Shown here one piece after another: positions 3,590 to 61,738 of a stretch of 64,000 nucleotides of DNA. Positions within the stretch are counted from its first letter, which is position 1. Each line of letters starts with the position of its first letter. Position numbers and translations under genes: made by a program. The notes under the pieces were generated by a model, which did no database searches, was not told the DNA's origin, and saw nothing but the letters and a program-made list of their open reading frames with translations. Source of the stretch: Candidatus Wolfebacteria bacterium (GTDB lineage Bacteria; Patescibacteriota; Minisyncoccia; Phycocordibacterales; EsbW-18); contig JAKEFG010000015.1 in the NCBI GenBank assembly GCA_022616195.1, forward strand, positions 9,354 to 73,353. Reading direction: 5' to 3'.

Positions 3590-4642
3590 ATGGCTACGAA
3601 AGCAAAATCGGAGAAAACGGTGAAATTGAACTTTGTCCCGAAACAGGTTGTCAAGCGCCTGCTTGCCGTGCTTCCTGATCGTGCTGTTGATGTCCTGACC
3701 CGTCGGTATGGACTCGGAAAGGACACCGGTCGTATGACGCTTGAAGCCATCGGTCAGATTTACGATATTACCCGAGAGCGCGTCAGACAGATCGAGAATT
3801 ACGCGCTCGGGGCCATCCGCAAGTCCGAAAGCTATGAGAAGGAAAGTAAGGCCATTGATGAGCTCGAGCGGCTCATCAACGCGATGGGGGTGGTTGTCCC
3901 GGAAGAATTTTTTCTCGATGAGGTTGCAAAGGACAAGAGCACCCAGAACTACATACACTTTCTGTTGGTGCTCGGTCACCCGTTCACTCGTTTCAAGGAA
4001 GACGAACATTTTACGCATCGCTGGCATATTGATGCAGATGTCGCCCGTGGTGTTGAGGAGGCGCTGAAGAACTTGTACGCGTCACTGCCGGACGAAGAGC
4101 TTCTGTCGGAGCCGGAGCTCATGACGAGATTTCTGTCACATCTCAAAGAGCTCGCGGACCAGTACCGCGACGAAGAAATTCTGAAACGCTGGCTTTCGCT
4201 CTCGAAGAAAATTGCCAAAAGCCCTCTGGGCGATTGGGGACGTGTTGAGTCAACTGCGGTGAGCCCCCGCGGCATTCGCGACTATGCGTATCTGGTGATT
4301 CTTCGGCACGGCTCACCGCTCCACTTCACCGAAGTGGCGAAACAAATCAGCAAGCTATTTGACCGGCGGGCACACACTGCAACCGCGCACAACGAGCTCA
4401 TAAAGGACCAACGGTTCGTGCTTGTCGGACGCGGGCTCTATGCACTCTCGGAGTGGGGATACATGCAAGGTGTCGTCAAAGACGTTATTGTCGAGATTCT
4501 CAAACAGCACGGTCCGCTGACCAAAGAGGAAATCATTGACCGGGTGCTCAAGGAACGCTACGTGAAGGGAAATACTATCGCGGTCAATCTGCAGGATCCG
4601 ATGTTTAAGAGGACAAAGGACGGGAAGTACGCGCTCGCGTAG
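3590..4642 (+). CDS. sigma-70 region-4-like HTH protein with ~280-aa uncharacterised C-terminal extension (not a complete sigma factor)
   Basis: N-terminal LLAVLPDRAVDVLTRRYGLG..TLEAIGQIYDITRERVRQIENYALGAIRK matches sigma70 region 4 / FliA-type HTH; regions 2 and 3 absent; remainder helical with no known motif. Confidence 0.8.
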   Translation: MATKAKSEKTVKLNFVPKQVVKRLLAVLPDRAVDVLTRRYGLGKDTGRMTLEAIGQIYDITRERVRQIENYALGAIRKSESYEKESKAIDELERLINAMGVVVPEEFFLDEVAKDKSTQNYIHFLLVLGHPFTRFKEDEHFTHRWHIDADVARGVEEALKNLYASLPDEELLSEPELMTRFLSHLKELADQYRDEEILKRWLSLSKKIAKSPLGDWGRVESTAVSPRGIRDYAYLVILRHGSPLHFTEVAKQISKLFDRRAHTATAHNELIKDQRFVLVGRGLYALSEWGYMQGVVKDVIVEILKQHGPLTKEEIIDRVLKERYVKGNTIAVNLQDPMFKRTKDGKYALA

Positions 4643-7650: not shown

Positions 7651-8330
7651 AGACGGAACGGAAAACACGATGGGCTGACTGGACGTTGACAAGCAAATAC
7701 ACGATAGAGAATCAAAGTCTCCGCTGACACGCGATGCGTACAGGCGGAGCAAGCAGGTAATTAAGTAAGGTATCAATGCTTGACATTGATACGCGGTTTT
7801 TAGATTTCCTAATAGGAGATCTGATAAGGGCGCACGGTGGATGCCTTGGCTCTAAACGGCGATGAAGGACGCGGCATGGCGGCGATATGCTTCGGGGAGG
7901 TGCCTAGCAACCTACGATCCGGAGATTTCCGAATGGGGAAACCCTGCGAGGTCAACCCTCGTGATCCTCTGATTCATCAGAGGAGGCACACCCGGGGAAG
8001 TGAAACATCTCAGTACCCGGAGGAACAGAGACTAATAAGTATTTCCTGAGTAGCGGCGAGCGAAATGGAAGAAGCCCAAACTCTGTGAAGCGAAAGCTAT
8101 GCAGAGGGTAGTAGGGTAACAACGTCATCTTTGATGAGGAGAGTTATAAAATGTTCTTCGTTAGCTGAATTCGTTGGAAAGCGAAGCCCGAGAGGGTAAT
8201 AGCCCCGTAATGCGAAAACGGAATGTCTCTCTTGTTGTTATTCCTGAGTACCCCGAGACATGAATAGCTCGGGGGAATCTGCCGGTACTAACCGGTAAGG
8301 CTAAATACGTTTAGAGACCGATAGTGAACC

Positions 8331-8361
<31 letters not shown>

Positions 8362-9636
8362 GGAGAGGGGGGTGAAATAGACCTGAAACCGTGCGTCTAC
8401 AAGGAGTCGAAGTGTCTTTTGGCACAACGGCGTGCCTATTGAAGAATGAGCCAACGAGTGTACGTGTACTGCTCGGCTAAGTCCTTTGTCGGACGAAGCC
8501 ACAGGGAAACCGAGTGTTAACAGCGCGAACTATAACTTTTTGCCGTGCGTGTGTTTCCTAGGACGCATGGTAAAGAGTTATCTGTAGTACATGTACGACC
8601 CGAAGCCGGGTGATCTACCCATGACCAGGGTGAACCTTACCGAAAGGTGGGGGGAGGCCCGAACCGATACGCGGTACAAAACGTTCGGATGAGTTGTGGG
8701 TCGGAGTGAAAAGCTAATCGAACCCGGTAATAGCTGGTTCTCTCCGAAATAGCTTTAGGGCTAGCGTTATGTGTTTCCCTCGGGGGTAGAGCACTGGAAG
8801 GAGTAGACAGGGCGAAAGCTCGCTTCTCCTATCAAACTCCGAATACCGAGGGTTAGAGCATAGCAGTTAGACTATGGGCGCTAAGGTCCATTGGTCAAAA
8901 GGGAAACAGCCCAGACCTCAAGCTAAGGTCCCTAAATCGACACTAAGTGCACGTAAGGAGGTGCAATTTCTCTGACACTGAGGAGGTTGGCTTAGAAGCA
9001 GCCATCCTTTAAAGAAAGCGTAACAGCTCACTCACTTAGAGATTGTGCGCCGCAAATAATCGGGGCTAAGTGTCGTACCGACGCTGAGGATTGTATCCCG
9101 TTTCGACGGGGTGCAGTGGTAGGAGAGCATTTCTATTGCTATGAAGCCCCTGTGTAAACCGGGGTGGAGCGATGGGAAGAGAGAATGTTGGCACAAGTAA
9201 CCGCAAGGCAGGTGCGATCCCTGCCCGCCGAAATCCCAAGGTTTCCTTGGCAATGTCAATCAGCCAAGGGTTAGTCGGTCCTAAGGAGATGGCGAAAGCC
9301 GTATCCGATGGACACACGGTTAATATTCCGTGACTTCCTGTTCATTCGATGGAGTAACGGAGGGTTGTACACGTTGCACATTATTGGATTTGTGTGCATG
9401 CTTTGAGGGAGTCAGTTAGGCAAATCCGGCTGACGCCACCCCGAGAAGTGTGCGGAATTCCGCTACGGCGGGAGAACAACGTGGAGCACGCTCCCGAGAA
9501 AAACTTCTAAGGTTCATGTCCAGGAAACCGTACCGCAAACCGACACAGGTGGGAAGGTCGAGAAGACCAAGGCGAACGGGTGAGAGATCCTCAAGGAACT
9601 CGGCAAAAAAGCGGCCGTAAGTTCGCAATAAGGCCT

Positions 9637-10028
9637 CCCAGCACTAGATTAAGTTCTTAAATGTAAACAGTAAGGAGAAAAAGCATGACAAATGAGCAGT
9701 ACCTAAAGGCAATCGGTGAAATGAAAAAAATAATACCGGCAGAAATTTTACCGGAGAGGATTGACACAAGCCGTAAATTCTCTGAAACTTCTGTAGAACA
9801 GAAGTTAAAACATTCTCTATATTTGTTAGAGAATGTCCCGACTTTTCTCGAGGTAGGAAAACGAGAAAAATCATCAAGACATTTAGCTTTTGCTCAGGCA
9901 ATCCTTTGGTCTTTGGACATGTTGGCAATCGACCAATTAATGGATTTCAACAGAAGATGATCATAATCGGGTGGTGATGATTATTTTTCACGCTCCCCGA
10001 ATTTTTAAGAATTTAATCTAGTGCTGGG
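9637..10028 (+). other. IVS-like insertion in a variable 23S helix (approx. E. coli helix 63 region), closed by a ~25-bp stem with one G-U; ~340 nt inserted
   Basis: cccagcactagattaagttcttaaa ... tttaagaatttaatctagtgctggg are reverse complements; flanking sequence continues into GACTGTTTACCAAAAACACAG (E. coli ~1770-1785). Confidence 0.65.
9685..9960 (+). CDS. 91-aa protein encoded inside the 23S IVS-like insertion (hypothetical, all-helical)
   Basis: ATG preceded by TAAGGAG 7 nt upstream; terminator-like hairpin plus T-run after the stop (~9955-9990). Confidence 0.55.
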   Translation: MTNEQYLKAIGEMKKIIPAEILPERIDTSRKFSETSVEQKLKHSLYLLENVPTFLEVGKREKSSRHLAFAQAILWSLDMLAIDQLMDFNRR

Positions 10029-10185
10029 CGCAGCGAAAGTATCCCTGGCGACTGTTTACCAAAAACACAGCTCCCTGCGAACTCGTAAGAGGATGTATAG
10101 GGGGTGACGCCTGACCAATGCCAGAAGGTCAAACGCGGAGGGTACATGTGACTTCGGTTATATGTGCTGGACTGCGTAAGCCCTG

Positions 10186-10224
<39 letters not shown>

Positions 10225-10883
10225 CAATTCCTTGTCTGGTAAGTTCAGACGTGCACGAATGGCGTAACGACTGGGGAACTGTCTCGAGGATTCGCCCGGT
10301 GAAAATGCAATGGGGGTGAAGATGCCCTCTACCTGCAGTTAGACGAAAAGACCCCAGGAGCTTTACTGTAACTTGATAGTGGGGGTACGTAGTATATGCG
10401 TAGCATAGGTGGGAGACGTTGAAGCGAAGGTCTCGGCTTTCGTAGAGTCGCCAGTGAAATACCACTCTTATATAGCGTGCTTTCTAACCTCGACGGCAAA
10501 AACGGCGGGGGACAGTATCTGGTAGGCAGTTTTAGTGGGGCGCTATCCTCCTAAAAAGTAACGGAGGAGCCTATTACGGTCAGCTAGGCGCGAATGGAAA
10601 CCGTGCCGATAGTGTAATGGCAGAAGCTGGCCTGACTGCAAGGGGTACATCCCGAGCAGGCGCGAAAGCGGAGCATAGTGAACCGAGAGTTCCCTTTAGA
10701 CGGGGCTCGAGATTAACGGATAAAAGTTACCCTGGGGATAACAGGCTGGTCCTGCCTAAGAGTCCATATCGACGGCAGGGTTCGGCACCTCGATGTCGGC
10801 TCACCGTATCCTGGCGCTGGAGAAGGTGCCAAGGGTTTGGCTGTTCGCCAATTAAAACGGTACGCGAGCTGGGTTCAGACCGT

Positions 10884-11360
10884 TCTGGGCATGAATCATA
10901 AGATATGAATCATGAATAGAGCAGTCTGAATCCGCTCATAACGACACAATCGTTTTTTCGTCTATGAAATAAGTCCCGATTTTGATGTATCAAAATCGAG
11001 GATCCCGACCAGAGCGTCGGGAATAGAATCAACCTAATCACGGCGGTCATGTGTAGTAATACGCATGTATCAAGCTGACCCCGATTTTGATGTATCAAAT
11101 CGAGGATCCCGACCAGAGCGTCGGGACTAATATCGGTGAATTTCTAGCTTCTAGGTAAGAAGAAGGAGGACACCGAGGGAATGGTTCGACTTTGCTCACC
11201 ACGAGCAAATAGAATTCGGCCCGTAGAGACTGAACGTCAGCGTTCCTTACTCATGTTTTGTGTTATACGCGACATGTGTTGGGAATATGCTACAGTCCGA
11301 TCCCGCCGGTAACGGCGGTGTGGCTAGACGCTAGGAGCTAGCGGCTAGTTGCTACAGTTG
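10884..11360 (+). mobile_element. ORF-less group-I-like intron inserted exactly after U2593 (E. coli numbering) of 23S
   Basis: exon reads GGGUUCAGACCGU | CGUGAGACAGG, matching E. coli G2581-U2593 | C2594-G2603; 5' exon ends in U and insert ends in G, as for group I introns; longest ORF <65 aa. Confidence 0.6.
10975..11126 (+). repeat. two direct copies (10975-11022 and 11080-11126) of a 48-bp element, each made of two hairpins (cgattttgat-gta-atcaaaatcg and tcccgac-cagagc-gtcggga), separated by 57 nt, inside the L2593 intron
   Basis: copies identical except one A in the A-run. Confidence 0.85.
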
Positions 11361-11423
11361 CGTGAGACAGGTTGGTCTCCTATCTACTGCAGGCGTTGAT
11401 TCTTGAGGGGAGCTGCTCCTAGT

Positions 11424-12251
11424 AAGTAATTGCTACTCTTCGGAGAGATCCGAAGTGACAATGTGGCTTATAACGGTGAAGCCTTCATATGATTACTGTC
11501 CGAGGATTGTGAATAGCTATTGGTCCAGCTATGGTATAATTCGCTTGCGGACCGTAATCCGCTGCAAGGTAATACCGTGGGAAGTCGATCTCAAACACAC
11601 ACAGCGTATATAGCGGGTTTTCTTGATGGTGACGGCAGTTTGATGCTGCAGATCAAAAAACGATCTGATACAAAACGAGGTATTCGTTTTATGGCAACAA
11701 TCTGTCTGTATCAAGATACTCGCCATGAGAGGCCGCTGTGCTGGATGCGTGAAGTTTTAGGCATTGGATATCTATCTCGACGCCGTGACGGCATTACAGA
11801 GTTACGTATCAATGGCTTTAGTCAGTGCAAAACAATTCTTGAACAACTAGTACCGTATATACGGTTTAAGAAGGTTCAAGTGAGTGCATTGCTCGAGGCA
11901 TGTACGGTACTGTGTACGACGCCGTTTTCAAAGCTCACGAAACAACAGCAGAAGTATTTGGTTGACCGTATTGTGATCATTCAACATGAAAACTATACAA
12001 CCAAGTCAAAAAAGCGTAGGGAAGAGCTGTATGCATGTTTGGATTTGACCCCGTAACGACTTGTTCATGTAGTTGCCACTACATGGCGGACTTGCTGATG
12101 TATTGAATCAGGAATGTATTCCTGACAATCTCAGTGGGTAACATGCCGCCACCCTCGTCCTCCATCTCATGGGGAACGGGTGAAGATATAGTCTATGCTC
12201 CTGGAAACAGGGGAGTAATCTTGTTTTTCAAAAGTGAAACAAGAGATACAT
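11424..12251 (+). mobile_element. 828-nt intron in the sarcin-ricin loop of 23S (after U2656), carrying a LAGLIDADG homing-endonuclease gene
   Basis: flanking exons join to GCUGCUCCUAGU|ACGAGAGGACCGGAGUGGAC, identical to the E. coli SRL sequence; 5' exon ends U and insert ends G. Confidence 0.75.
11520..12056 (+). CDS. single-motif LAGLIDADG homing endonuclease, I-CreI-like
   Basis: YIAGFLDGDGS motif; ~170 aa; GIGYLSRRRDG and LEQLVPYIRFKKVQVSALLEAC segments parallel I-CreI GVGYVRDRGS / FLTQLQPFLKLKQKQANLVLKII; ORF-track start is TTG 11520; in-frame GTG 11577 lies after a perfect TGgTATAAT (11531-11539). Confidence 0.85.
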   Translation: MVQLWYNSLADRNPLQGNTVGSRSQTHTAYIAGFLDGDGSLMLQIKKRSDTKRGIRFMATICLYQDTRHERPLCWMREVLGIGYLSRRRDGITELRINGFSQCKTILEQLVPYIRFKKVQVSALLEACTVLCTTPFSKLTKQQQKYLVDRIVIIQHENYTTKSKKRREELYACLDLTP

Positions 12252-12545
12252 GACGAGAGGACCGGAGTGGACTGACCGCTGGTGTACGAGCTGTCCTGCC
12301 AAGGGCATCGCTCGGTAGCTATGTCGGGACGGGATAACTTCTGAAAGCATCTAAGAAGGAAGCCCACCCCAAGATTAGGAATCATTAAGACCCGTGAGAG
12401 ATGATCACGTTGATAGGCACCAGGTGGAAGCACAGTAATGTGTTGAGCCGAGGTGTACTAATTCGTCGAGTATCTCCTATTAGGGAATCTGAAAATCGCT
12501 TAGTTCCTGCTTTTCTATCGTGTAGGCGACTGACTTTAAGTGTTG

Positions 12546-12656
12546 TGTGTTGGTGGTTCGACGCTGTGGAGACACCCGTTCTCATTCCGAACACGGCAGT
12601 TAAGCACAGTAGTGGCGATGGTACTCGCAAGGGGAGAGTAGCTAGCCGCCAACACA
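12546..12656 (+). rRNA. rrf: 5S ribosomal RNA
   Basis: CCGUUCUCAUUCCGAACACGG..GUAGUGGCGAUGGUACUCGCAAGGGGAGAGUAGCUAGCCGCC; ends pair as helix I. Confidence 0.85.
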
Positions 12657-29579: not shown

Positions 29580-29725
29580 CCGCTCGCGCGTTAGTGCAAT
29601 ATGCGGTTAGTAACCGAACACTCAACGGGTTGAGTGCTCTGGTATAAAAGCAACGAACCCCACCCGACCGCGGTGAGCCGAGTGGGGCTCGTGCGGGGGT
29701 GGGGCTGGGCGGCGTGTAGCCGCAG

Positions 29726-30088
29726 TCAGCGGTTCGGAGAAGGGGACTCCAGTGCCTTGAGTACCAGAATCCACCTTCCCATGGTGGTGTGGTGGGAGAA
29801 GGTGACATTCAGCACCCGCACGCGACTTCCGGGTTCCGGCCTGTAGCCGCTCACAGCGGTGAACAGGTCGCCGTCCGAGATACGCCGGACGATGACGAAC
29901 GAGAAACCAGTGCCCGGGATCTCGTCGCTGAACCCGACGACCTCGAAATCCTCTTGCCACTCGCTGTGGACTTCGGGTGCCGGAAGCCCCGCCTGCCCCG
30001 ACGCCTTGATGTCGTGCTCGACACGCACCAAGACGAGTATCATCAGGGCCGTCACCATCGCCTTGGCCAAAACGCTGAAGATTTTCAT
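29726..30088 (-). CDS. small secreted/anchored hypothetical protein (signal-peptide-like N-terminus)
   Basis: MKIFSVLAKAMVTALMILVLV; GGAGG 5 nt upstream of ATG; G+C-rich relative to neighbours. Confidence 0.6.
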   Translation of the reverse strand: MKIFSVLAKAMVTALMILVLVRVEHDIKASGQAGLPAPEVHSEWQEDFEVVGFSDEIPGTGFSFVIVRRISDGDLFTAVSGYRPEPGSRVRVLNVTFSHHTTMGRWILVLKALESPSPNR

Positions 30089-30254
30089 CTCTTCCTCCTT
30101 GTCGTTATAGTTCTCACTTCTGCTGTAGACGCACCAGTATGCACCTGCAGCAGAAGTGAAAGTATGCCACCAATCTTTTAAAGGACTTTGACGACATTAT
30201 AGCAGATAGAAATACTACCGTCAAGTTTTTTAGGATGTGCTAAAATAGCCTTTA

Positions 30255-31134: not shown

Positions 31135-31644
31135 ATGAACCAAAACACCAACCCGGAGGAACTCTTTTTGAAGGCGTATGAGGGGTTTGGTGATTCGGTC
31201 TTTCGGCACTGCTATCTGCGCGTTTCGCCTCGCGAGGAAGCGGTGGATATTACCCAGGAGGCATTCATGAAGGTGTGGGACTATCTCCGCACCGGGCAAG
31301 AAGTTCACAACATGAAGGCGTTTGTGTTTAAGACAGTGAACAATCTCATCATTGACTGGTACCGGAAGAAAAAACCGGTGACGCTTGACGACGAAGAGGC
31401 GCTCCGTATTCCCGACACTCTACACGCTACAGATCCGGAACTCGCGGCGCTCGGCAGAGAAGCACTCACACTTCTTGCGCGCCTTGATGGAGAGTACCGA
31501 ACTGTGGTGGAACTCCGTATCATTGAAGGATTTGGTCCTAAGGAGATTGCCGAGATCTTGGGCGAGACCGAGAACGCGGTATCGGTGCGCATTCACCGCG
31601 GCATTGCAAAACTTCGTGAATTGTATGAAAGCTCACCGGAGTAA
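31135..31644 (+). CDS. ECF (group IV) sigma factor
   Basis: sigma70 region 2 (AFMKVWDYL..NNLIIDWYRKKK) and region 4 (EGFGPKEIAEILGETENAVSVRIHRGIAKLRE). Confidence 0.88.
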   Translation: MNQNTNPEELFLKAYEGFGDSVFRHCYLRVSPREEAVDITQEAFMKVWDYLRTGQEVHNMKAFVFKTVNNLIIDWYRKKKPVTLDDEEALRIPDTLHATDPELAALGREALTLLARLDGEYRTVVELRIIEGFGPKEIAEILGETENAVSVRIHRGIAKLRELYESSPE

Positions 31645-31648
31645 CGTC

Positions 31649-32848
31649 ATGGAAGAAGAATTTGCACAACTGAAGAGTCAACTTGAAACAATTCGTCTCT
31701 CTGCGGCGGAGCGTGAGCGCGTGCATGCGGTGCTTTCGGAATACGTCACGCACCGGCCTGTGTCGCGCGGCTCTGCGCCGGCGCCTGTGGGATACGCGTG
31801 GTTTGCCGTACACCGTTTTGTCGCGGTGGTTGCCGTAGCGCTTGTCGTAGTACTTTTTGGTGGAACGGTCTCATATGCCGCGGAGGGGGCGCTTCCCGGC
31901 GATGCGCTCTATGCGGTGAAAGTGGGCGTCAACGAGCCGCTTCGCGACACGTTCGCGCGCACGCCCGAACATAGAGCGACGCGGGAGGTTGATAAGGTGA
32001 ATCGTCGGCTTGCGGAAGCGGAGACGCTTGCCGCAGAAGGGCGTCTCAATGCGGCGCTCCGTGAGGATATCGAAACGCGTGTCACTGTGCATCTTGCCGC
32101 GGCGGAAGCACGCGTCGCGATGCTCAAAACCGACACGGATATCGCCGAAACGCTTGATGCGACGCTTGACGTGCACGACAGTATCCTCGCCTCGCTTGGG
32201 GAAGACGAGGTGGACGGCGAGGAAGTGGGCGTGCTTCTTGCGCGCGTGCGCACCGTGACGTCTCTACGGGCACACGAATACGGAAGGAGCGGGGGCGAGG
32301 AGCCGCAGGCACCAATGATGGCGCTCCAGACACCGTCTCCCTCTGCGGACGAAGAAGAACAACAAGCGGCGGCGGAAAGCGGCGCAGAGGCGGACCTTGC
32401 GGCAGAGATAACGGAGGTGGGGGCGGAGCTGGATACACTCCAGGAACGTGCTCTCTTAGGGCGTCCCAACGTGCGCATTTCGGTGCGCGAGGAGGCGGAG
32501 CGTCTTCTCAACGCGGCTGACAGAGCGCTTGCGGATGCCGACAAGGAACTTGCGAAAGGAGAATTTGAAACAGCGGAAGAAAAACTCACACTCGCGCGGC
32601 GCGCACTGCACCGCGCGACGATCGTGCTCAACGCCGCACTGCGGCTTCCGGAGAACATCAAACTTTTTCCCGTCCGGCTTCCGGAAAACGGTAGTGACGC
32701 TGACGCGCAAAATGGCGACGGCGACGTTGAGAGCGCGTCGGTGGGGAGTGACCGAGAGGGCAATGACGACGGTGAAGACAGAGAAGAATCACGGCGCGGC
32801 TCGTCACGCGAAGACGACGATGGACGGACGCGAAGGGGAGCAGGTTGA
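31649..32848 (+). CDS. putative anti-sigma factor (cytoplasmic N-term, one TM, DUF5667-like extracytoplasmic helical domain, highly acidic tail)
   Basis: starts 5 nt after the ECF stop; TM AWFAVHRFVAVVAVALVVVLFGG; Ala/Arg/Glu-rich coiled region; C-terminal DADAQNGDGDVESASVGSDREGNDDGEDREE. Confidence 0.7.
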   Translation: MEEEFAQLKSQLETIRLSAAERERVHAVLSEYVTHRPVSRGSAPAPVGYAWFAVHRFVAVVAVALVVVLFGGTVSYAAEGALPGDALYAVKVGVNEPLRDTFARTPEHRATREVDKVNRRLAEAETLAAEGRLNAALREDIETRVTVHLAAAEARVAMLKTDTDIAETLDATLDVHDSILASLGEDEVDGEEVGVLLARVRTVTSLRAHEYGRSGGEEPQAPMMALQTPSPSADEEEQQAAAESGAEADLAAEITEVGAELDTLQERALLGRPNVRISVREEAERLLNAADRALADADKELAKGEFETAEEKLTLARRALHRATIVLNAALRLPENIKLFPVRLPENGSDADAQNGDGDVESASVGSDREGNDDGEDREESRRGSSREDDDGRTRRGAG

Positions 32849-32878
32849 GAATATCCTGAAATTTTAGGATGCGGATGG

Positions 32879-34780
32879 TTACTTACTCGTGAACCGGTAC
32901 ACGCCGTCCCAACGCTCGGGGGGCTGCTGTTTGAATTCCCGCGCCCGCTCAAGAAGGAGCGCGGACGGACCGTCTGGTTCTGTAGCGAGCGCCTCGTTGA
33001 ATGCAGCGATTGCTCTGTCCCAGTCGCCCCGCTCGTACGCCGCCCGTCCGCGCTCATAGTGTTCAAAAAGTGTTTGGTGTGCGGGTGTCACGCCGCGCGC
33101 GATGAGCTCATAGAGGGCGCGCGGCTCGCTTTTGCCTTTGACCGCGACGCGGTCAAGGAGACGTGTGGGAAGGTCGGGTAGGGCGGCAATTGCGTCGCGG
33201 GTGTTTTCTCCAATAAGGATAGGGACGCCGTACGCTTTGGTGAGCCCCTCGAGGCGCGACGAGAAGTTCACTTCGTCGCCGACGATGGTGTAGTTGAAAC
33301 GTTTCGCGGAGCCCATGTTACCCACGACGACCTCGCCCGTCGAGATGCCGATGCCGATGCGGATTTCCGGCTTACCGTCTTTCTTCCATGTTTTGTTGAG
33401 CATATCAAGTATGGCAATCATGGCGAGCGCTCCGCGGCAGGCGTGCTCCGCGTGCGTGGGGTCGTCAATCGGTGCCCCCCAGAACGCCATAATCGCATCC
33501 CCGATGTATTTATCGACGAGTCCGCGATGTTCCAAAATAGTGTCCGTCATTGCCGAGAGATATTCGTTGAGGCGCTCCGTGAGTTCTTCGGGCGAGAGCG
33601 ACTCCGAGAGTGTGGTGAATCCGCGGATGTCGGAGAAGAGAATGGAGAGCGTTTTTCGTTTGCCCCCGAGCGAGAGCTTTGAAGGGTCGCGGACGAGTTC
33701 GTTCACAACCTCGGGTGCAAGGTAGTACTGGAACGTGGTGCGGATGAATTGTTTTTCGCGCGCCTCGGTTGCGTATTGGTACACGACGCCTCCCCCTGCG
33801 GCGAGGATGAACGCGAGCTCAAGATAGAGCACGGGAGTGACGAGATACACGCCGAAGAGCGCCGCCGCCACGAGGTAGATGAGGCCGACGCCGAGAGCGA
33901 ACAGAACGATGAGCGGCAGGGTTTTTCGGATGAATGCCGCGAGAAGCGTTGCGAGAAATGCGGCGAGGGCGATGCCAAGGACACCCCACGGGCGCGGCAA
34001 ATCGCGGAAGCGGCTCGGCGATTCAAGTGTCGCGAGCGCGTTCGCCTGAAACTCAACGCCCGGCATGAGCCCCACGGGCGTTTCAACGCTGTCTTTGAGG
34101 TCGGGCGCGGTGGCGCCGATGAGCACCGTTTTGTGAGCGAAAACGTCTTCGGGTACCGTACCCTCGAGCACGTCTATAAGCGAAATGGTCGGGAACGTTT
34201 CGGCAGGCCCCCGCCAATCAATTCGTGCGGTTTCGGGAATTACCGCAGTTTTTCCCGCAAGCGCTTCCGCGAAGCTCGGCCTACCGAGCGCCATGAGACG
34301 CACAGCGCCGTCCGCGTCGAGGGAGACATTCACCGCCCCGAGGGAAACGTTCTCTCCCGTGAGGGAAGGGAGCGGCCCGAAGCTGTTTCCGGTGCGCGGG
34401 TCTATAAAGAGTGGCAGGACGACGCGCCCCGGAAACGTCCGGAGCGCCTCCGCAAGCCGGTTATCGTCAAATGCGCCCACTCGCGACGGCTCCGCGAAAT
34501 TAACGTCAATGCCGACGACCTCGGCCCTACGGAGGCGCGCGATGGCGTCGGCAAACACGGCGCGCGGCCACGGCCACTGACCGACTGCGCGCAAACTTCT
34601 GTCGTCAATCGCGATAATGAGAATGTCTCGCGGCGGGTCTTTTCGTATAACAAACCGGTCAAGGATATTTTCCTCGGCGGTATCAAGCGCTCCGGAGAGG
34701 TAGAGCGCTCCGGCGAGAAGGGCGGCGATGAGCGCGACGAGCGCGAGACCGATGTGCCGACGGTGGAGAAAAACACCCAT
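32879..34780 (-). CDS. CHASE2 sensor - class III adenylate/guanylate cyclase (with C-terminal TPR-like segment)
   Basis: CHASE2 region (ILIIAIDDRSLRAVGQWPWPRAVFADAIARL), TM bundle, cyclase core LSILFSDIRGFTTLSE..KYIGDAIMAFWGAP..GISTGEVVVGNMGS. Confidence 0.88.
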   Translation of the reverse strand: MGVFLHRRHIGLALVALIAALLAGALYLSGALDTAEENILDRFVIRKDPPRDILIIAIDDRSLRAVGQWPWPRAVFADAIARLRRAEVVGIDVNFAEPSRVGAFDDNRLAEALRTFPGRVVLPLFIDPRTGNSFGPLPSLTGENVSLGAVNVSLDADGAVRLMALGRPSFAEALAGKTAVIPETARIDWRGPAETFPTISLIDVLEGTVPEDVFAHKTVLIGATAPDLKDSVETPVGLMPGVEFQANALATLESPSRFRDLPRPWGVLGIALAAFLATLLAAFIRKTLPLIVLFALGVGLIYLVAAALFGVYLVTPVLYLELAFILAAGGGVVYQYATEAREKQFIRTTFQYYLAPEVVNELVRDPSKLSLGGKRKTLSILFSDIRGFTTLSESLSPEELTERLNEYLSAMTDTILEHRGLVDKYIGDAIMAFWGAPIDDPTHAEHACRGALAMIAILDMLNKTWKKDGKPEIRIGIGISTGEVVVGNMGSAKRFNYTIVGDEVNFSSRLEGLTKAYGVPILIGENTRDAIAALPDLPTRLLDRVAVKGKSEPRALYELIARGVTPAHQTLFEHYERGRAAYERGDWDRAIAAFNEALATEPDGPSALLLERAREFKQQPPERWDGVYRFTSK

Positions 34781-34783
34781 GGT

Positions 34784-35860
34784 TTATTGTTGCCCTTGAG
34801 GATAGGCAACTGTGCCGGTGGGCTCACTGCCGTTTGCGCCTGCGGACTCTCTCTCGGGACTCGGCTCCGCGACGGAGAGGGCGTCGGAGAGCGTTGCGCG
34901 CACTCCCGCGGCGTTGACGACACTCACATCAAAGGTACCCGCGCTATTGAGGAGCCGTGCATCAAAGTAGAGCGTGCTGTCCTGCGGTATGAAAAATTCA
35001 GCGATACTTTGGGAACCCACAAAGACCTCTGTGACGTCGGTGAACCCCGAGCCGGTGAGGACAATATTGTCTTCTTCGCCCAACACCGCCGCCGAGGGGT
35101 TCACCTGGATGAGCGTGAGCGGAGGTGGCGGGGATATGTCGGGCTCCGCGGGCGGCATCGCGAACTCCGTGTCGATTTCTGCAGGCGGCTCCGCGAAGTC
35201 GGGGTTGTTGAACCCGAACCACTCGCTTGAAGTGTCTTCGGGCGAGAGCGGCTCTATGATGATGCCGTCCGTAAAGCTCACCGTCGCTTTTGAGCCCGCT
35301 TCAACGGTCTCAAGCGTGTTGGGAAGGCGCTCGCCGGTTTCGGGGTTCTTTTGTATGACATCCACACTATTCTCCGTTACCAGTATGCTCGTACTTGCGG
35401 CGCTCGCGTTCGTGCCGAATGAAGTGCCGCGCACCGCGGCAACCGCGTGCTGTGTTTCTATTTCGTAAAACTCCCCCTGTTCAAGCGATTTTTCAATGCG
35501 CGACCAGAGGTTTCCCGTATGGAGCGCGAGTGCGGTGCGCCCGGCGTCTCCCGCGGCGACGGTGAGCTCCGTGTTCTCGCCGACGACGGTGATGCTCGTA
35601 CCCGGCGCCTCAATCAAGGCGCGCCCCGTATCGTCGGTGCGTACAATCGCGCCGGGGAAGAGCTCCATGCTACTGGTGGCGGCAGTAAAACTTACACTCG
35701 ATGTTGCCCGGACAGAGAGCGCGGCGGAGAGTACGGTGAGGCGGGAGGGGAATGCCGCACCCTCGTTGGGTGTTTCCGCGTCACCGGATAAGAGAAGCCA
35801 CGCGCCACCCGCGACAAGAAGCACTACGAGGGCAAGAACGGTTTTTGCCCACAGTTTCAT
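34784..35860 (-). CDS. FecR-domain protein with signal peptide and C-terminal Ig-like region; forms an operon with the CHASE2 cyclase (4-nt gap)
   Basis: HAVAAVRGTSFGTNASAASTSILVTENSVDV resembles the FecR (PF04773) core; N-terminal MKLWAKTVLALVVLLVAGGAWLLLS. Confidence 0.75.
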   Translation of the reverse strand: MKLWAKTVLALVVLLVAGGAWLLLSGDAETPNEGAAFPSRLTVLSAALSVRATSSVSFTAATSSMELFPGAIVRTDDTGRALIEAPGTSITVVGENTELTVAAGDAGRTALALHTGNLWSRIEKSLEQGEFYEIETQHAVAAVRGTSFGTNASAASTSILVTENSVDVIQKNPETGERLPNTLETVEAGSKATVSFTDGIIIEPLSPEDTSSEWFGFNNPDFAEPPAEIDTEFAMPPAEPDISPPPPLTLIQVNPSAAVLGEEDNIVLTGSGFTDVTEVFVGSQSIAEFFIPQDSTLYFDARLLNSAGTFDVSVVNAAGVRATLSDALSVAEPSPERESAGANGSEPTGTVAYPQGQQ

Positions 35861-35918
35861 GAACCTATCCTACGCTTCTCGCGGGTGCGGAGCAAGGAAA
35901 GGTGAAAGACCTGTTATT

Positions 35919-36332
35919 TTATTGCCAGACCGCGAGAATGATGCCCATCACAAGCAGATTTACGAGGTCGTAGCCGATGTTGAGGAAGTAGAGTTTCCAC
36001 GGGCGCATCTCCCAGAGAACGGAGCCGAGCTTGGTGGTCACGAAGAAACCGAGCCAGACGAGAAAGCCGAGCGTGAGACCGCCGGTCACGCCCGCGACAC
36101 CGAGTGAAGAAATGAGGTAGGCGAGCGTGAACGCGGTGACGAGCGCGCCGATGAAGCCAATGATATACGACTTCATCATCCCCTTCTTTTTACCCGCATC
36201 CATCTGTAGAGGGGTGATACCCATAAGCGCCATCCACGGTTTGCCGAAGAGCGGACCGTACCAGAGGGAGCCAATGCCCATGGCGACGATGCCCGCAACA
36301 AGGACAGCAAGATAGTTGATATCTCCAAACAT
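35919..36332 (-). CDS. DUF1761-family membrane protein
   Basis: MFGDINYLAVLVAGIVAMGIGSLWYGPLFGKPW N-terminus, 4 TM. Confidence 0.65.
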   Translation of the reverse strand: MFGDINYLAVLVAGIVAMGIGSLWYGPLFGKPWMALMGITPLQMDAGKKKGMMKSYIIGFIGALVTAFTLAYLISSLGVAGVTGGLTLGFLVWLGFFVTTKLGSVLWEMRPWKLYFLNIGYDLVNLLVMGIILAVWQ

Positions 36333-36506: not shown

Positions 36507-36578
36507 TCCGCGGTAGCACAGCGGTAGTGCAGCTCCCTGTTAAGGAGTTGGTCGCAGGTTCGAATCCTGCCCGCGGAG
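36507..36578 (+). tRNA. tRNA-Asn (anticodon GTT), CCA not encoded
   Basis: 7-bp acceptor stem tccgcgg/ccgcgga, D stem gcac/gtgc, anticodon loop cuGUUaa, T arm gcagg-ttcgaat-cctgc. Confidence 0.85.
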
Positions 36579-37001
36579 CGAAGCATTGATGCGAAGTGGG
36601 AGGAGCAGCGAGCGTTCCAGCTTGCCCCGCCGGAGTTCTCACGAAGGAGGGCCCGCGGAGCCATTCGAGAAGTTCATGGCCCTGTGTCAGGCCCAGGGGC
36701 GGGCATTTTGTCTCTTTTCTCCAACAACAGAAGTCGAAGTCTGTGCATGCTGACCCGTGGTTTGTCGCACAAGCTAAAGTTGAAAATCTGATTTTGATAA
36801 CGGAGGAGGCGGTGAGTAGTCCCAAGAGAATCCCGCAAGTCTGTACAGCCGTCGGCGTAAAATCCCTCAGTATTCTCGGACTGATTCAGGAAGAAGGTTG
36901 GAGTTATTAGGGAGCCACGCAAAAATTATATAATTTTGGTATGATAAAAAAGCGAGTACGCCGGTTCGCCTAACAAAATCTTTAATAATAACTTTGAGCC
37001 T

Positions 37002-38305: not shown

Positions 38306-38827
38306 GTGAAGCACACGACTCTGATCGCACTCGCACTCCTCACCGTTCTCGCCGCTCCCCCCGCGTTCGCTCAGGAGGAGTCCATTCGCGTCGAGAGCAC
38401 CGTTCTCGTGGACGAGGGGGTTGTCCAGGACCTCCGCTCGCCCGAGGTCCGGCTGTACGTCGTCCGGGAGTGGGGAGATCTGTGGTGGATCCGGCTGGGA
38501 ACCTGCGAGCCACCGACATCGCCCACACTCGTGTTGCACTTCGAGCAAGGAGTCGGAACCCTCCAGGCGGTCCTGGCCGCCGAGGAAAGCTTCCTCTATG
38601 AGAGTACCGACGACCAGCCCAGTCGGGACTTCGCCGACCTCACGGAGGCCGCGGAGCACGGTTGCGAACCGCTCTCCCGCGAAGAATTCCTCGCGGAACT
38701 CCCGACGGAGCTCCGCGACCTCTTGGAGGGTACTTCCGCGGCCCCGGCCTACAACTACGAGATCGTGACGGTCGAGGAGGACGGCACCGTGCGGCTCTCT
38801 CGGAGTCCCGATCCTCCCACGCAGTGA
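38306..38827 (+). CDS. secreted hypothetical protein (cleavable signal peptide, acidic)
   Basis: MKHTTLIALALLTVLAAPPAFAQEE; GTG start 8 nt after AGGAGG; ~60% G+C. Confidence 0.6.
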   Translation: MKHTTLIALALLTVLAAPPAFAQEESIRVESTVLVDEGVVQDLRSPEVRLYVVREWGDLWWIRLGTCEPPTSPTLVLHFEQGVGTLQAVLAAEESFLYESTDDQPSRDFADLTEAAEHGCEPLSREEFLAELPTELRDLLEGTSAAPAYNYEIVTVEEDGTVRLSRSPDPPTQ

Positions 38828-59991: not shown

Positions 59992-60447
59992 ATGTATTCT
60001 CTCCGGCGGAGCGCAGGTTCCACAATTATCACCGGCTTGATGCTCGTGACCTTGGTAGGGCTTTTTGCCGGTCCGGTTGTATATGCACAGGATGAAGACC
60101 CGAGCCGATTTTTTGGTTTGGTGCCTTGTACCGGCGTTGCTCCTGACCCAGACCGGGTTGGGCCGCCCGCACCGAACGAACACCCATGCACCTTTACCGA
60201 TCTGGTAGCGGCAGCACAAAAGGTTATTGACTGGCTACTCTATGCCGCGGTCTTTTTTGCGGCTACTCTCTTCAGCTGGGCGGGCTTTCTCTATGTAACG
60301 TCGGCAGGGGAAACGGGGAAGGTGAGTCGGGCGCACGGCATATTCAAAAATGTCCTCATTGGGTTTATTATAGCGTTAGCGGCATGGCTCATCGTGCACA
60401 CCATTACCACGGCGCTTCTTAGGGATCAGTCGCTTCCGCTATTGTAA
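59992..60447 (+). CDS. pilin-like small membrane protein, paralog 1 (signal peptide + two hydrophobic helices)
   Basis: MYSLRRSAGSTIITGLMLVTLVGLFAGPVVYAQDE; C-terminal LLYAAVFFAATLFSWAGFLYVTSAGETGKVSRAHGIFKNVLIGFIIALAAWLI. Confidence 0.7.
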   Translation: MYSLRRSAGSTIITGLMLVTLVGLFAGPVVYAQDEDPSRFFGLVPCTGVAPDPDRVGPPAPNEHPCTFTDLVAAAQKVIDWLLYAAVFFAATLFSWAGFLYVTSAGETGKVSRAHGIFKNVLIGFIIALAAWLIVHTITTALLRDQSLPLL

Positions 60448-61249: not shown

Positions 61250-61324
61250 GTTATTTTATATCTCCAGTATTTTGTTTCGATGATGTTGGTTGATTACTAT
61301 AATAATAAGCGATATGTTACGTGT

Positions 61325-61738
61325 ATGGCATCTCACTATAAAAGCGGAGTAGCAATAGTCAGCGCACTCGTGTTATTCGCGGTCATGGTGCCGCGGGTTG
61401 TTTTTGGGCAAACCATAACAGGGATACTTGATACAGCGGGTGGTATTGTCGGTCGGCTGATACCGATAGTCGCCGGGGTTGCTCTACTCGTTTTCTTTTG
61501 GGGACTTGTCAGGTTTATTGCGAGCGCGGGAAGCGAAGACGGGCGAAAGGCGGGAAAACAAATAATGCTCTGGGGCATCATCGCGCTCTTTGTCATGATA
61601 GCGATTTGGGGCATCGTTGCATTTATAAGGGTCTCTCTTGGTGTCAATCAGGAGGATAATCCGAACGCTCCCTGCCTCAGAGGTCTTCCTGGGTGTCCTA
61701 GTTCTGGGGGTTCCAGTGGCGGCACTCAGTCAGTGTAA
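61325..61738 (+). CDS. pilin-like small membrane protein, paralog 4
   Basis: VALLVFFWGLVRFIASAGSEDGRKAGKQIMLWGIIALFVMIAIWGIV; Gly/Ser-rich tail. Confidence 0.7.
   Translation: MASHYKSGVAIVSALVLFAVMVPRVVFGQTITGILDTAGGIVGRLIPIVAGVALLVFFWGLVRFIASAGSEDGRKAGKQIMLWGIIALFVMIAIWGIVAFIRVSLGVNQEDNPNAPCLRGLPGCPSSGGSSGGTQSV

Follow-up and report, generated by a model that had tools for sequence, protein, structure and literature searches.

Four adjacent genes between positions 31135 and 35860 of a 64,000-nucleotide stretch from Candidatus Wolfebacteria, within the Parcubacteria group (hereafter the window, meaning the whole stretch that was analysed), raise the question of whether they are an envelope-sensing island acquired from elsewhere or modules that are ordinary in their lineage. 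A first-pass annotation had proposed the former: a G+C-rich, horizontally acquired unit, uncommon for a reduced genome, in which an ECF sigma factor and an anti-sigma-like protein converge on a FecR-domain protein and a CHASE2 nucleotide cyclase. Analyses of domains and folds support its functional reading of the four genes. As to their origin, we consider it probable that the locus contains two separate envelope-signalling modules typical of the Parcubacteria group (Patescibacteria), placed tail to tail by local gene order, and that the pair constitutes neither one functional nor one mobile unit.

ORF calls and Pfam searches agreed with the coordinates and domains previously assigned to the four ORFs, and also with the tight spacing described within both gene pairs. 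On the plus strand, the gene for the ECF-type sigma factor (31135–31644, 169 aa) is followed after 4 nt by that for a DUF5667 membrane protein and putative anti-sigma factor (31649–32848, 399 aa). On the minus strand, a membrane-anchored surface FecR-domain protein (34784–35860, 358 aa) is encoded by the first gene of an operon and is separated by 3 nt from a predicted sensor adenylate cyclase with CHASE2, class III cyclase and TPR domains (32879–34780, 633 aa). The two pairs converge, as had been noticed, with 30 nt between their stop codons (32849–32878), and we found no terminator-like hairpin in this gap. On its right, the G+C-rich stretch ends at a tRNA-Asn gene (GTT; 36507–36579, plus strand), detected with ARAGORN and Rfam. 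The gene order from DUF1761 to rpoD was identical in an independent Logan assembly (L001).

The four genes had been credited with GGAGG-type ribosome-binding sites, but GGAGG was found upstream of none of them, and GGAG only upstream of the anti-sigma-like gene, at −11. The FecR gene is preceded by a −10-like TAGGAT at −12 from its ATG, a pattern typical of the apparently leaderless genes of this genome; TANNNT boxes were located 4–13 nt before the start of 14 out of 38 genes, against a background of 8.8%. The 10-mer AGCGTAGGAT that precedes the FecR ATG (35867–35876, minus strand) is identical in a close relative (L082, to which the fragment L166 is about 95% identical). As judged from these sequences, the AGCGTAGGAT/TAGGAT box probably serves as promoter for a FecR-cyclase transcript that is leaderless or has a very short leader.

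The cyclase protein matches Pfam CHASE2 (PF05226; 160.9 bits, residues 20–276) and Guanylate_cyc (PF00211; 82.2 bits, with a cut-off of 21.9 bits), with the cyclase domain at 376–552 and a C-terminal TPR at 573–610. Hydropathy analysis revealed hydrophobic segments at 8–35 (TM1) and 263–334, the latter of which probably forms three transmembrane (TM) helices; CHASE2 sits between the N-terminal TM helix and this TM-helix cluster, i.e. it is extracytoplasmic, and W69, P70 and R73 of its QWPWPR motif are invariant among orthologues. Degeneration of the catalytic domain had been named as an argument against function, and we found instead that the full set D384/K424/D428/T498/N505/R509 is kept: in 25 orthologues, the metal-binding residues D384 and D428 and the transition-state residues N505 and R509 are invariant, as is the substrate-specifying K424, and the second substrate-specifying position, 498, is occupied by Thr (21/25) or Ser (4/25). 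The best PDB sequence matches were a bacteriophytochrome-adenylate cyclase fusion (6fht), CyaB (3r5g) and 2w01, an 'adenylate cyclase' entry that we take to be a guanylate cyclase, with E-values for 3r5g, 2w01 and 1wc0 ranging from 2e-33 to 8e-27. K424 and T498 align with the Lys and Thr of CyaB 3r5g, and 2w01 has Glu and Gly at these positions; with its catalytic residues intact, the enzyme is thus predicted from the Lys/Thr pair to be a class IIIb adenylate cyclase specific for ATP, and its product would be cAMP. In a comparison of the catalytic domain only, that of Pseudomonas aeruginosa CyaB (3r5g, class IIIb; E 2.1e-33) is among the best solved-structure matches and has identical FSDIRGFT, DK(Y/F)(I/V)GD and YTI(V/I)G.EVN..SRLE motifs, containing the two metal Asp, the Lys, the Thr, the Asn and the Arg. 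Presumably, CyaB differs outside this domain in having a MASE2 membrane sensor, with neither a FecR partner nor a TPR.

The AlphaFold2 model of the FecR protein (mean pLDDT 82), together with hydropathy, indicates an N-terminal TM helix (2–25) and an all-beta FecR domain (39–204; Pfam PF04773, 45.8 bits), followed by a Pro-rich linker and a C-terminal Ig-like domain of the IPT/TIG type (249–331), with a weak Pfam TIG match. Organisms of this lineage are not known to have an outer membrane. In Foldseek searches, the FecR fold best matched the putative anti-sigma factor BDI_1681 (4m0n) and the C-terminal cell-surface signalling domain of PupR (6ovk_R), at E about 3e-7 and with an rmsd of 2.7 Å over about 140 columns. 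The superposition on the PupR domain and the nearby ECF sigma gene are reminiscent of the FecI-FecR-FecA and PupI-PupR systems; however, a FecR/PupR-type anti-sigma regulator was rejected because the TM helix is at residues 2–25 and no cytoplasmic, anti-sigma domain precedes it. The corresponding operon type was likewise rejected, because the FecR gene is paired and co-transcribed with the cyclase gene, and the sigma factor is encoded on the opposite strand with a DUF5667 protein as its own partner; besides, no TonB-dependent receptor or transducer was found among the window ORFs. The partnership with the cyclase is constant, with FecR directly upstream and on the same strand in all nine related loci that include upstream sequence (L082, L083, L084, L085, L002, L004, L019, L027 and L045). 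This bears out the earlier remark that FecR-domain proteins are genomic partners of CHASE2 proteins, as also documented elsewhere (PMC9239204, PMC5192318).

The sigma factor matches Pfam Sigma70_r2, Sigma70_r4_2 and Sigma70_ECF, with no match for r3 or r1, and NCBIfam TIGR02937 (sigma70-ECF) at 79.9 bits versus a cut-off of 42.9 bits; it did not reach any equivalog-level NCBIfam family. With sigma-2 and sigma-4 regions only, in 169 aa, it fits an ECF (group 4) sigma factor. Its neighbour scores 26.4 bits with Pfam DUF5667, just below the 27-bit cut-off, and all 38 homologues found, itself aside, are DUF5667 proteins. As the first-pass annotation had deduced, hydropathy and an AlphaFold2 model (mean pLDDT 79.4) show a single TM helix (about 50–78), here preceded by two short cytoplasmic helices (2–35) and followed by an all-helical ectodomain (88–332) and a disordered D/E/R-rich tail (353–399). 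No recognised anti-sigma domain (zf-HC2, RskA, class I or II ASD) was detected in it with Pfam or NCBIfam, nor any PDB fold match at E < 0.5; DUF5667 is an uncharacterised helical domain, and our literature search gave no paper on it. ECF sigma factors can be paired with single-pass anti-sigma factors, as in SigW-RsiW, and some anti-sigma domains are of the short class II type, as in CnrY. The pair described here resembles those of the SigW-RsiW type in its sigma factor with only sigma-2 and sigma-4, in its translationally coupled single-pass partner with a short, helical, N-terminal cytoplasmic segment, and in that the pairing recurs in relatives; it differs in that the partner matches no recognised anti-sigma family and has a DUF5667 ectodomain. 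An ECF sigma gene lies upstream of the DUF5667 homologue in three relatives, where the two genes overlap (L167), are adjacent (L166) or have one gene between them (L168). We thus infer that the DUF5667 protein is most likely the anti-sigma factor of the neighbouring ECF sigma.

Sequence comparisons retrieved at least 119 clusters, besides the source protein, of full-length cyclase orthologues with 43–73% identity, and those named to a lineage are all from Parcubacteria, Paceibacterota, Minisyncoccia or Uhrbacteria; the module is therefore not uncommon for a reduced genome, contrary to what had been supposed. Genome matches outside Patescibacteria showed 31–42% identity in the best segment, with E-values weaker than those of the Patescibacteria matches. 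The nearest lineage-named homologues are all Patescibacteria, an outcome that the first-pass annotation had itself named beforehand as refuting horizontal acquisition, and this refutes an import from outside the lineage. The four genes do not travel as one island either: at 12 other related cyclase loci, eleven of them labelled Patescibacteria, no ECF or DUF5667 gene was found in the available flanking sequence, which extends up to 10 kb on either side, and two relatives (L167 and L168) contain the ECF-DUF5667 pair without cyclase or FecR. In L083 and L085, the FecR-cyclase pair is surrounded by genes for ribosomal proteins and for translation factors or tRNA synthetases. The two pairs are juxtaposed in only one close relative (L082/L166), where they are also convergent neighbours, with a Na+/H+ exchanger gene between them.

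There is, nevertheless, a compositional anomaly in the block from the anti-sigma-like gene to FecR (31649–35860), which is real but moderate. As had been noticed by eye, the block is richer in G+C than leuS (49.1%) and rpoB (50.0%); computed over its length, it reaches 61.0%, compared with 52.1% in the remainder of the window, of which it is the top 4.2-kb stretch. The ECF sigma gene, which had been included in the G+C-rich island, does not belong there, with background levels of both G+C (52.4%) and GC3 (0.60). Nor is the block compositionally unique, since other window genes are as G+C-rich or richer: four window ORFs exceed it in GC3 (0.75–0.80), and the DEAD-box helicase matches it (GC3 0.704). 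The G+C excess of the DUF5667 gene is due wholly to amino-acid composition, and that of FecR and cyclase partly to amino-acid composition and partly to a moderately raised GC3. The high G+C of the block is not the sign of a recent import from a foreign source.

As for an older event, we regard it as possible, if somewhat doubtful, that the block, perhaps including DUF1761, is a lateral segment from a Patescibacteria donor of higher G+C, acquired beside tRNA-Asn by the common ancestor shared with the L082/L166 organism and since partly adapted. Apart from the G+C excess itself, this would be in line with the dinucleotide signature of the block, whose distance delta* (109–117 × 10−3 versus a window mean of 55 ± 21) exceeds the mean by about 2.7 SD and is matched only by the rRNA region, and with codon usage, for which cyclase, FecR and anti-sigma-like gene rank third to fifth most deviant among the 16 window genes of 350–860 codons. 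The relative has the same excess, with a G+C of 0.60 for the L082 operon versus 0.49 for its flanks (38–54% beyond tRNA-Asn) and of 0.56–0.60 throughout L166. At eight other Patescibacteria-labelled loci (L002, L003, L004, L019, L027, L064, L083 and L085), the G+C of the cyclase or operon is within about 2 points of that of the flanks; since most other Patescibacteria orthologues resemble their flanks in this way, the family as such does not account for the excess. The position of the block also fits, because its adjacency to tRNA-Asn is conserved in L082, where the tRNA (4458–4530) adjoins FecR, and because synteny with L086 and L093, which have the order rpoD / PD-(D/E)XK / DsbA / exonuclease / hisS, breaks after the PD-(D/E)XK gene, exactly at the block start. 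The L082/L166 organism, the only close relative, carries the block at this tRNA-Asn site too, and in more distant rpoD-anchored loci, different genes follow the PD-(D/E)XK gene. At four-fold sites, cyclase (0.405) and FecR (0.470) have diverged less from L082 than has the CHRD gene on their flank (0.621, from only 58 sites). Against such a transfer, no integrase or transposase Pfam match was found among the ORFs scanned (26.6–41.5 kb), nor any att-like repeat, either tRNA-derived or another convincing direct repeat, and it is on the 5′ and not the 3′ side of the tRNA that the block is located. Moreover, the promoter region of FecR is conserved and conforms to the leaderless type native to this genome, which, with the lack of mobility genes and att repeats, also speaks against the acquisition proposed by the first-pass annotation. 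The GC3 z-scores are only +1.3 for cyclase and +1.1 for FecR, and are average for the anti-sigma-like (+0.2) and ECF (+0.1) genes, although the compositional step falls inside this coupled pair; besides, a core gene, that of the DEAD-box helicase, is equally G+C-rich. Finally, no donor is identifiable: after the 73% relative, and leaving aside the L166 fragment, the next nearest cyclases are about 51–52% identical, and those with a lineage name are all Patescibacteria.

It is improbable, in turn, that the two modules form one circuit, in which the ECF sigma would drive FecR-cyclase expression, or cAMP or the TPR would feed sigma release, and whose tail-to-tail arrangement would be kept for a functional reason. 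The convergent adjacency is indeed kept in L082/L166 despite a synonymous divergence of roughly 0.6–0.8 substitutions per site (corrected values), and outlasts the gain or loss of the intervening exchanger gene, and both modules sense the envelope; however, shared gene order in one close relative is expected by descent alone, and each module occurs without the other in the 12 cyclase loci and the two ECF-DUF5667 loci mentioned above. In addition, we found no motif of the AAC-N16-19-CGT type upstream of FecR or DUF1761, and the TAGGAT box of FecR is housekeeping-like. A role for the cyclase in supplying the nucleotide of a Pycsar-like defence against phages, suggested by the match of PADLOC PycC profiles to its cyclase domain (best, 105 bits), is close to refuted and, in our view, highly improbable, because these matches do not extend beyond the catalytic fold common to class III cyclases, no adjacent gene for a cNMP-binding or TM/TIR effector exists in the window or in relatives, the Lys/Thr pair would specify a purine (ATP) and not a pyrimidine, and the enzyme has an extracytoplasmic CHASE2 sensor and, as its constant partner, a surface protein with a FecR domain.

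We propose that the two separate modules would operate as follows. The first would be the two-gene FecR-cyclase operon, probably expressed from the TAGGAT −10 box as a leaderless mRNA. Its FecR-domain protein may act as an extracytoplasmic co-sensor that binds a ligand or a surface outside the cell and then acts on the CHASE2 ectodomain, with which it would interact; CHASE2, in turn, would gate the activity of the dimeric cyclase across the membrane, turning cAMP up or down. The cAMP effector would be encoded outside the window, in which, as the first-pass annotation had pointed out, no ORF has a cNMP-binding, CRP or GAF match; no phosphodiesterase was found among the window ORFs either. In the second module, the ECF sigma is translationally coupled to the single-pass DUF5667 protein, whose short N-terminal helices most likely sequester the sigma until an extracytoplasmic cue frees it.

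The first module has counterparts in several systems. In Campylobacterota, CHASE2 cyclases cluster with genes for FecR-domain proteins, TPR proteins and cAMP phosphodiesterases (PMC9239204), and share with the module described here the link of a CHASE2 class III cyclase to an extracytoplasmic FecR protein and a TPR module; here, however, the cyclase itself carries the TPR at its C-terminus, as a fusion, and there is no adjacent phosphodiesterase gene, and the FecR protein, described there as outer-membrane, has one N-terminal TM anchor and an Ig-like domain. Likewise, CyaD1, CyaD2 and CyaK from Sinorhizobium meliloti, which act with the CRP-like Clr (PMC5498481, PMC13001267), combine a CHASE2 ectodomain with a class III cyclase and receive their signal through an accessory envelope protein, although here this partner is a FecR-domain protein and the window contains no CRP or cNMP-binding protein. 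CHASE2 appears to be an inhibitory gate, because S. meliloti with a plasmid carrying CyaD1 minus its CHASE2 domain produces cAMP constitutively (PMC5498481). The 'BiofilmReg' operon of Burkholderia, encoding a response regulator, a LysM+FecR protein and a CHASE2 histidine kinase (PMC5192318), also pairs FecR with a CHASE2 sensor in one operon, but there the output is a histidine kinase plus response regulator, and not a cyclase, and the FecR protein carries LysM in place of the Ig-like domain found here. In cultured Saccharibacteria, the single-copy core genes include one for an adenylate cyclase (PMC9040727). In all, our results indicate that the module formed by the cyclase pair is common in these tiny-genome Patescibacteria and typical of their lineage, and not a clearly imported, unusual island.

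The ORF list and domain scans recovered the four genes that the first-pass annotation had described. On the plus strand, an ECF-type sigma factor of 169 aa (31135-31644; Sigma70_r2 and Sigma70_r4_2, NCBIfam ECF superfamily 79.9 bits, cut-off 42.9) is followed, 4 nt after its stop, by the ORF of a 399-aa protein (31649-32848) whose sole family match is to DUF5667, at 26.4 bits (cut-off 27). On the minus strand, the gene for a 358-aa FecR-domain protein (35860-34784) is separated by 3 nt from that for a 633-aa protein (34780-32879) containing CHASE2 (160.9 bits), a class III cyclase domain (82.2 bits) and a C-terminal TPR. The convergent stop codons of the DUF5667 and cyclase genes lie 30 nt apart, with no terminator-like hairpin between them. 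Logan assembly L001, which is independent, shows an identical gene order from the DUF1761 gene to rpoD, excluding an assembly artefact at the junction with the core genes. The functional annotation was good and the observation largely correct, and the locus is an ordinary one: a further case of the known FecR-CHASE2 pairing, beside a further ECF sigma factor with a membrane partner.

The cyclase retains all of its catalytic residues. The motifs FSDIRGFT, DKYIGDA and YTIVGDEVNFSSRLE hold the two Asp residues that bind metal, the Asn and Arg of the transition state and, at the two specificity positions, the substrate Lys and a Thr, leaving no sign of the degenerate domain against which the first-pass annotation had cautioned. 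Across 25 orthologues, D384, K424, D428, N505 and R509 never vary, and residue 498 is a Thr in 21 of them and a Ser in the other four. The best sequence matches among solved structures are a bacteriophytochrome-adenylate cyclase fusion (6fht), Pseudomonas aeruginosa CyaB (3r5g) and an entry named adenylate cyclase (2w01); the specificity positions are Lys and Thr in CyaB, as here, whereas 2w01 has Glu and Gly. Because the catalytic set is conserved and the Lys/Thr pair is that of CyaB, the cyclase domain is intact and predicted to be ATP-specific (class IIIb). Hydropathy indicates a hydrophobic segment at residues 8-35 and a hydrophobic block at 263-334, and CHASE2, placed between them, therefore faces outwards. 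PADLOC matches to PycC reflect the shared fold alone and come without an effector gene, so we rejected a Pycsar anti-phage system.

The cyclase matches, residue for residue, an NCBI protein labelled Candidatus Wolfebacteria bacterium, of the Parcubacteria group of Patescibacteria. Its best 120 protein clusters comprise the source protein and 119 full-length orthologues of 591-662 aa with 43-73% identity, and all the lineage-named ones among these 119 are assigned to Parcubacteria, Paceibacterota, Minisyncoccia or Uhrbacteria. Among the matches listed in a species-genome scan, which under-samples Patescibacteria given how widespread cyclase motifs are and is not usable for counts, non-Patescibacteria cyclases show 31-42% identity in the best segment, with E-values weaker than those of the Patescibacteria matches. 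All nine related cyclase loci with upstream sequence (L082, L083, L084, L085, L002, L004, L019, L027 and L045) have a FecR-domain gene immediately before the cyclase gene and on its strand; in L083 and L085 the pair is surrounded by ribosomal-protein and translation-factor or tRNA-synthetase genes. This orthologue spread and constant FecR partner indicate that the module is common and typical of the lineage. The idea that it would be uncommon in a reduced genome thus fails, with at least 119 full-length orthologues of which all those named by lineage are Patescibacteria. Our literature searches on cyclases and cAMP in Patescibacteria yielded only a passing mention of adenylate cyclase, as a single-copy core gene of cultured Saccharibacteria (PMC9040727), which fits such a spread, and, in the literature searched, we found no paper describing a CHASE2 adenylate cyclase with a FecR partner in the Parcubacteria group. 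This combination, an intact CHASE2 adenylate cyclase constantly paired with a FecR-domain protein, is found widely among genomes of the Parcubacteria group.

An alignment of 11 database homologues went into the structure modelling. The model of the FecR-domain protein (mean pLDDT 82) consists of a transmembrane helix (residues 2-25) followed by an all-beta domain (39-204) and an Ig-like sandwich (249-331), these two joined by a disordered Pro-rich linker. The beta domain superposes with the cell-surface signalling domain of PupR (6ovk_R) and with BDI_1681 (4m0n) at an rmsd of 2.7 Å. Lacking a cytoplasmic part, the protein cannot be a FecR-type anti-sigma factor; classical FecIR cell-surface signalling was rejected on this ground and because the gene is co-transcribed with the cyclase.

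The model of the DUF5667 protein has two short N-terminal helices, one transmembrane helix, a long helical ectodomain (residues 88-332) and a disordered tail rich in D, E and R, and so agrees with the single-pass, anti-sigma-like protein with a helical extracytoplasmic region and an acidic tail first pictured from sequence. We found no match to an anti-sigma domain family in Pfam or NCBIfam, nor any PDB fold below an E-value of 0.5; it is thus the genomic context that suggests an anti-sigma role. The protein has 38 homologues besides itself, every one a DUF5667 protein of similar length, and a literature search on DUF5667 returned no paper. An ECF sigma gene lies upstream of the DUF5667 gene in three related loci (L166, L167 and L168), and L167 and L168 contain neither a cyclase nor a FecR gene. 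In a more distant relative (L093, 18291-19698), genes for a free-standing GAF protein of 165 aa and a DUF5667 protein of 270 aa are located ca. 7 kb downstream of rpoD and the PD-(D/E)XK gene, near a tRNA-Asn gene, and the cyclase is absent there. The window also encodes a 350-aa protein (3590-4642) with a sigma-70 region 4 and a HARE-HTH domain.

Conversely, no ECF sigma or DUF5667 homologue occurs near the cyclase in 12 other related loci (11 labelled Patescibacteria), within the available sequence of up to 10 kb on either side. The exception is one close relative, pieced together from two contigs (L082 and L166) that are ca. 95% identical in their overlap. On L082, a CHRD-like gene and five further genes precede tRNA-Asn, after which come a small ORF, FecR, the cyclase (73% identical to that of the window) and a Na+/H+ exchanger gene, and L166 continues from the 3' end of the cyclase through the exchanger to a convergent DUF5667 gene and the end of an ECF sigma gene. 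The exchanger gene (L082, 7981-9003; L166, 1394-2569) does not occur in the window, which implies the gain or loss of one gene within an otherwise conserved arrangement. Being common to both, the tail-to-tail arrangement beside tRNA-Asn predates the split of the two lineages; four-fold-site differences from L082 are 0.405 in the cyclase and 0.470 in FecR, or ca. 0.6-0.8 substitutions per site after correction. A single relative sharing this gene order is what descent alone would produce, and the simplest view of the ECF/DUF5667 pair is that of a separate sigma/anti-sigma switch.

Computed base composition bears out only part of the G+C-rich island proposed in the first-pass annotation. The block from 31649 to 35860 has 61.0% G+C against 52.1% in the remaining window (leuS, 49.1%; rpoB, 50.0%; rpoC, 50.5%). 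It is the richest 4.2-kb block of the window, and its dinucleotide signature distance (109-117 × 10−3; window mean 55, SD 21) is equalled only by the rRNA region, so the anomaly is real. It is, however, weaker than first appears. At 52.4% G+C, the ECF sigma gene matches the background, and the DUF5667 gene has an average GC3 (0.613, z +0.2), its 61.8% G+C stemming from a protein sequence rich in Ala, Glu, Leu and Arg. The GC3 excess of the cyclase (0.708, z +1.3) and FecR (0.691, z +1.1) is moderate, level with that of a core DEAD-box helicase (0.704) and exceeded by four window ORFs (0.75-0.80), and in codon-usage deviance the cyclase, FecR and DUF5667 genes rank third to fifth among 16 genes of 350-860 codons. 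A block nine points richer in G+C need not, in such a genome, signify foreign DNA. A 173-aa ORF at 38306-38827 (plus strand) is a better foreign-DNA candidate: it has the highest G+C of the window (65.9%; GC3 0.805), a full AAGGAGG site ahead of a GTG start and an N-terminus that by eye resembles a signal peptide, and it matches no Pfam or NCBIfam family.

The GGAGG-type sites attributed to the genes of the block precede none of the four, and GGAG occurs only upstream of the DUF5667 gene, at -11; the AGGAGG sites nearby are those of two different small ORFs of high G+C (29726-30088 and 38306-38827). Over 38 genes of the window, Shine-Dalgarno-like motifs precede five (8.7% at random positions) and TANNNT boxes lie 4-13 nt before the start of 14 (8.8% at random positions), supporting the view that core genes are leaderless. 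Shine-Dalgarno sites are thus nearly lacking and TANNNT boxes enriched, which fits a genome in which many mRNAs are leaderless or have very short leaders. FecR follows the native pattern, with TAGGAT at -12 inside the 10-mer AGCGTAGGAT, which also precedes its ATG in L082. An ECF-type promoter (AAC-N16-19-CGT) was not found upstream of FecR, the DUF1761 gene or the sigma gene in the window; the single match lies upstream of FecR in L083.

An older transfer of the block between Patescibacteria is conceivable, though we consider it unlikely. In its favour, the close relative shares the G+C excess (operon 0.60 and flanks 0.49 in L082; 0.56-0.60 in L166), whereas most other orthologues match their own flanks, to within about 2 points in eight Patescibacteria-labelled loci (L002, L003, L004, L019, L027, L064, L083 and L085), so the excess is not a property of the family itself. 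The deviant dinucleotide signature points the same way, as does the order rpoD, PD-(D/E)XK, DsbA, exonuclease and hisS, found in L086 and L093, which stops at the block start. Likewise, the cyclase and FecR have diverged less from L082 at synonymous sites than the flanking CHRD gene has (0.621, from only 58 sites). A metagenome scan anchored on rpoD gave no relative above 72% RpoD identity. Targeted integration at the tRNA was rejected, since neither a tRNA-Asn direct repeat nor an att-like repeat was found across 29-38 kb and the block lies 5' of the tRNA. The distribution of homologues refutes an origin outside Patescibacteria, and the native style of the putative FecR promoter also counts against one. 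The notion of a horizontally acquired, unusual cNMP island is therefore mostly unsupported: its nearest homologues named to a lineage are in Patescibacteria, and we found neither mobility genes among the ORFs scanned from 26.6 to 41.5 kb nor an att repeat.

A self-contained G+C-rich cassette (29653-30224, minus strand) between rpoD and the PD-(D/E)XK gene has a near-consensus promoter (TTGACG-17-TATAAT), an AGGAGG site, a hairpin with 20-nt arms (30114-30159), a terminator with a 17-bp stem and a 120-aa ORF (30088-29726; GC3 0.80) with an N-terminal hydrophobic segment and no family match; it looks like an insertion, because the spacing between the two genes is only about 25-60 nt in L086, L092, L093 and L101. 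Between tRNA-Asn and FecR, the DUF1761 membrane-protein gene (35919-36332, minus strand; GC3 0.746) has the most deviant codon usage of the window, and this slot is variable, since L082 carries there an unrelated 120-aa ORF without a family match. The ~420 nt downstream of tRNA-Asn (36580-37000), G+C-rich by eye in their first part and not conserved in L082, hold no convincing ORF or Rfam match. In the rRNA region (7814-12654), the 23S match spans 3152 nt against a model of 2925 positions, so the gene carries insertions, and a LAGLIDADG endonuclease ORF (11520-12056) lies in the 1.6 kb that separate the end of the 23S (10965) from the 5S rRNA (12549-12654). Two small T4SS-pilin-like genes (59992-60447 and 61280-61738) are found near the window end.

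The topology, folds, catalytic residues and constant operon structure of the FecR-cyclase pair, demonstrated here, can be read as a signalling route. The membrane-anchored FecR-domain protein, with its beta and Ig-like domains outside, would be a co-sensor acting on the CHASE2 ectodomain, and CHASE2 would gate a dimeric cyclase and so set the cAMP level. Comparable systems support this reading: CHASE2 cyclases of Campylobacterota cluster with FecR-domain, TPR and phosphodiesterase genes (PMC9239204), and in Sinorhizobium meliloti an external protein signal, passed on by an envelope protein, elicits a response from CHASE2 cyclases, while a plasmid with CyaD1 devoid of its CHASE2 domain gives constitutive cAMP (PMC5498481, PMC13001267). 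As first noted, the window has no obvious cNMP effector: a Pfam scan of its ORFs revealed no gene for a cNMP-binding, CRP, GAF or phosphodiesterase protein, nor do the flanks of L082, L083 and L085 show one in their Pfam listings. As no CRP or cNMP-binding protein accompanies the operon, a non-canonical effector, recruited for example by the fused TPR, could be proposed. The full scenario, in which the operon is a conserved Parcubacteria-group cAMP pathway sensing surface or host contact through such an effector, and was laterally exchanged between Patescibacteria here as a compositionally distinct cassette, seems to us improbable.

Parcubacteria-group bacteria have tiny genomes with very few regulators and are thought to live attached to other cells. 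For such organisms, the FecR-CHASE2 cyclase offers a concrete candidate route for signalling from the outside in, and the main value of this locus is that it points to a widespread, unstudied CHASE2-cAMP module in Patescibacteria.
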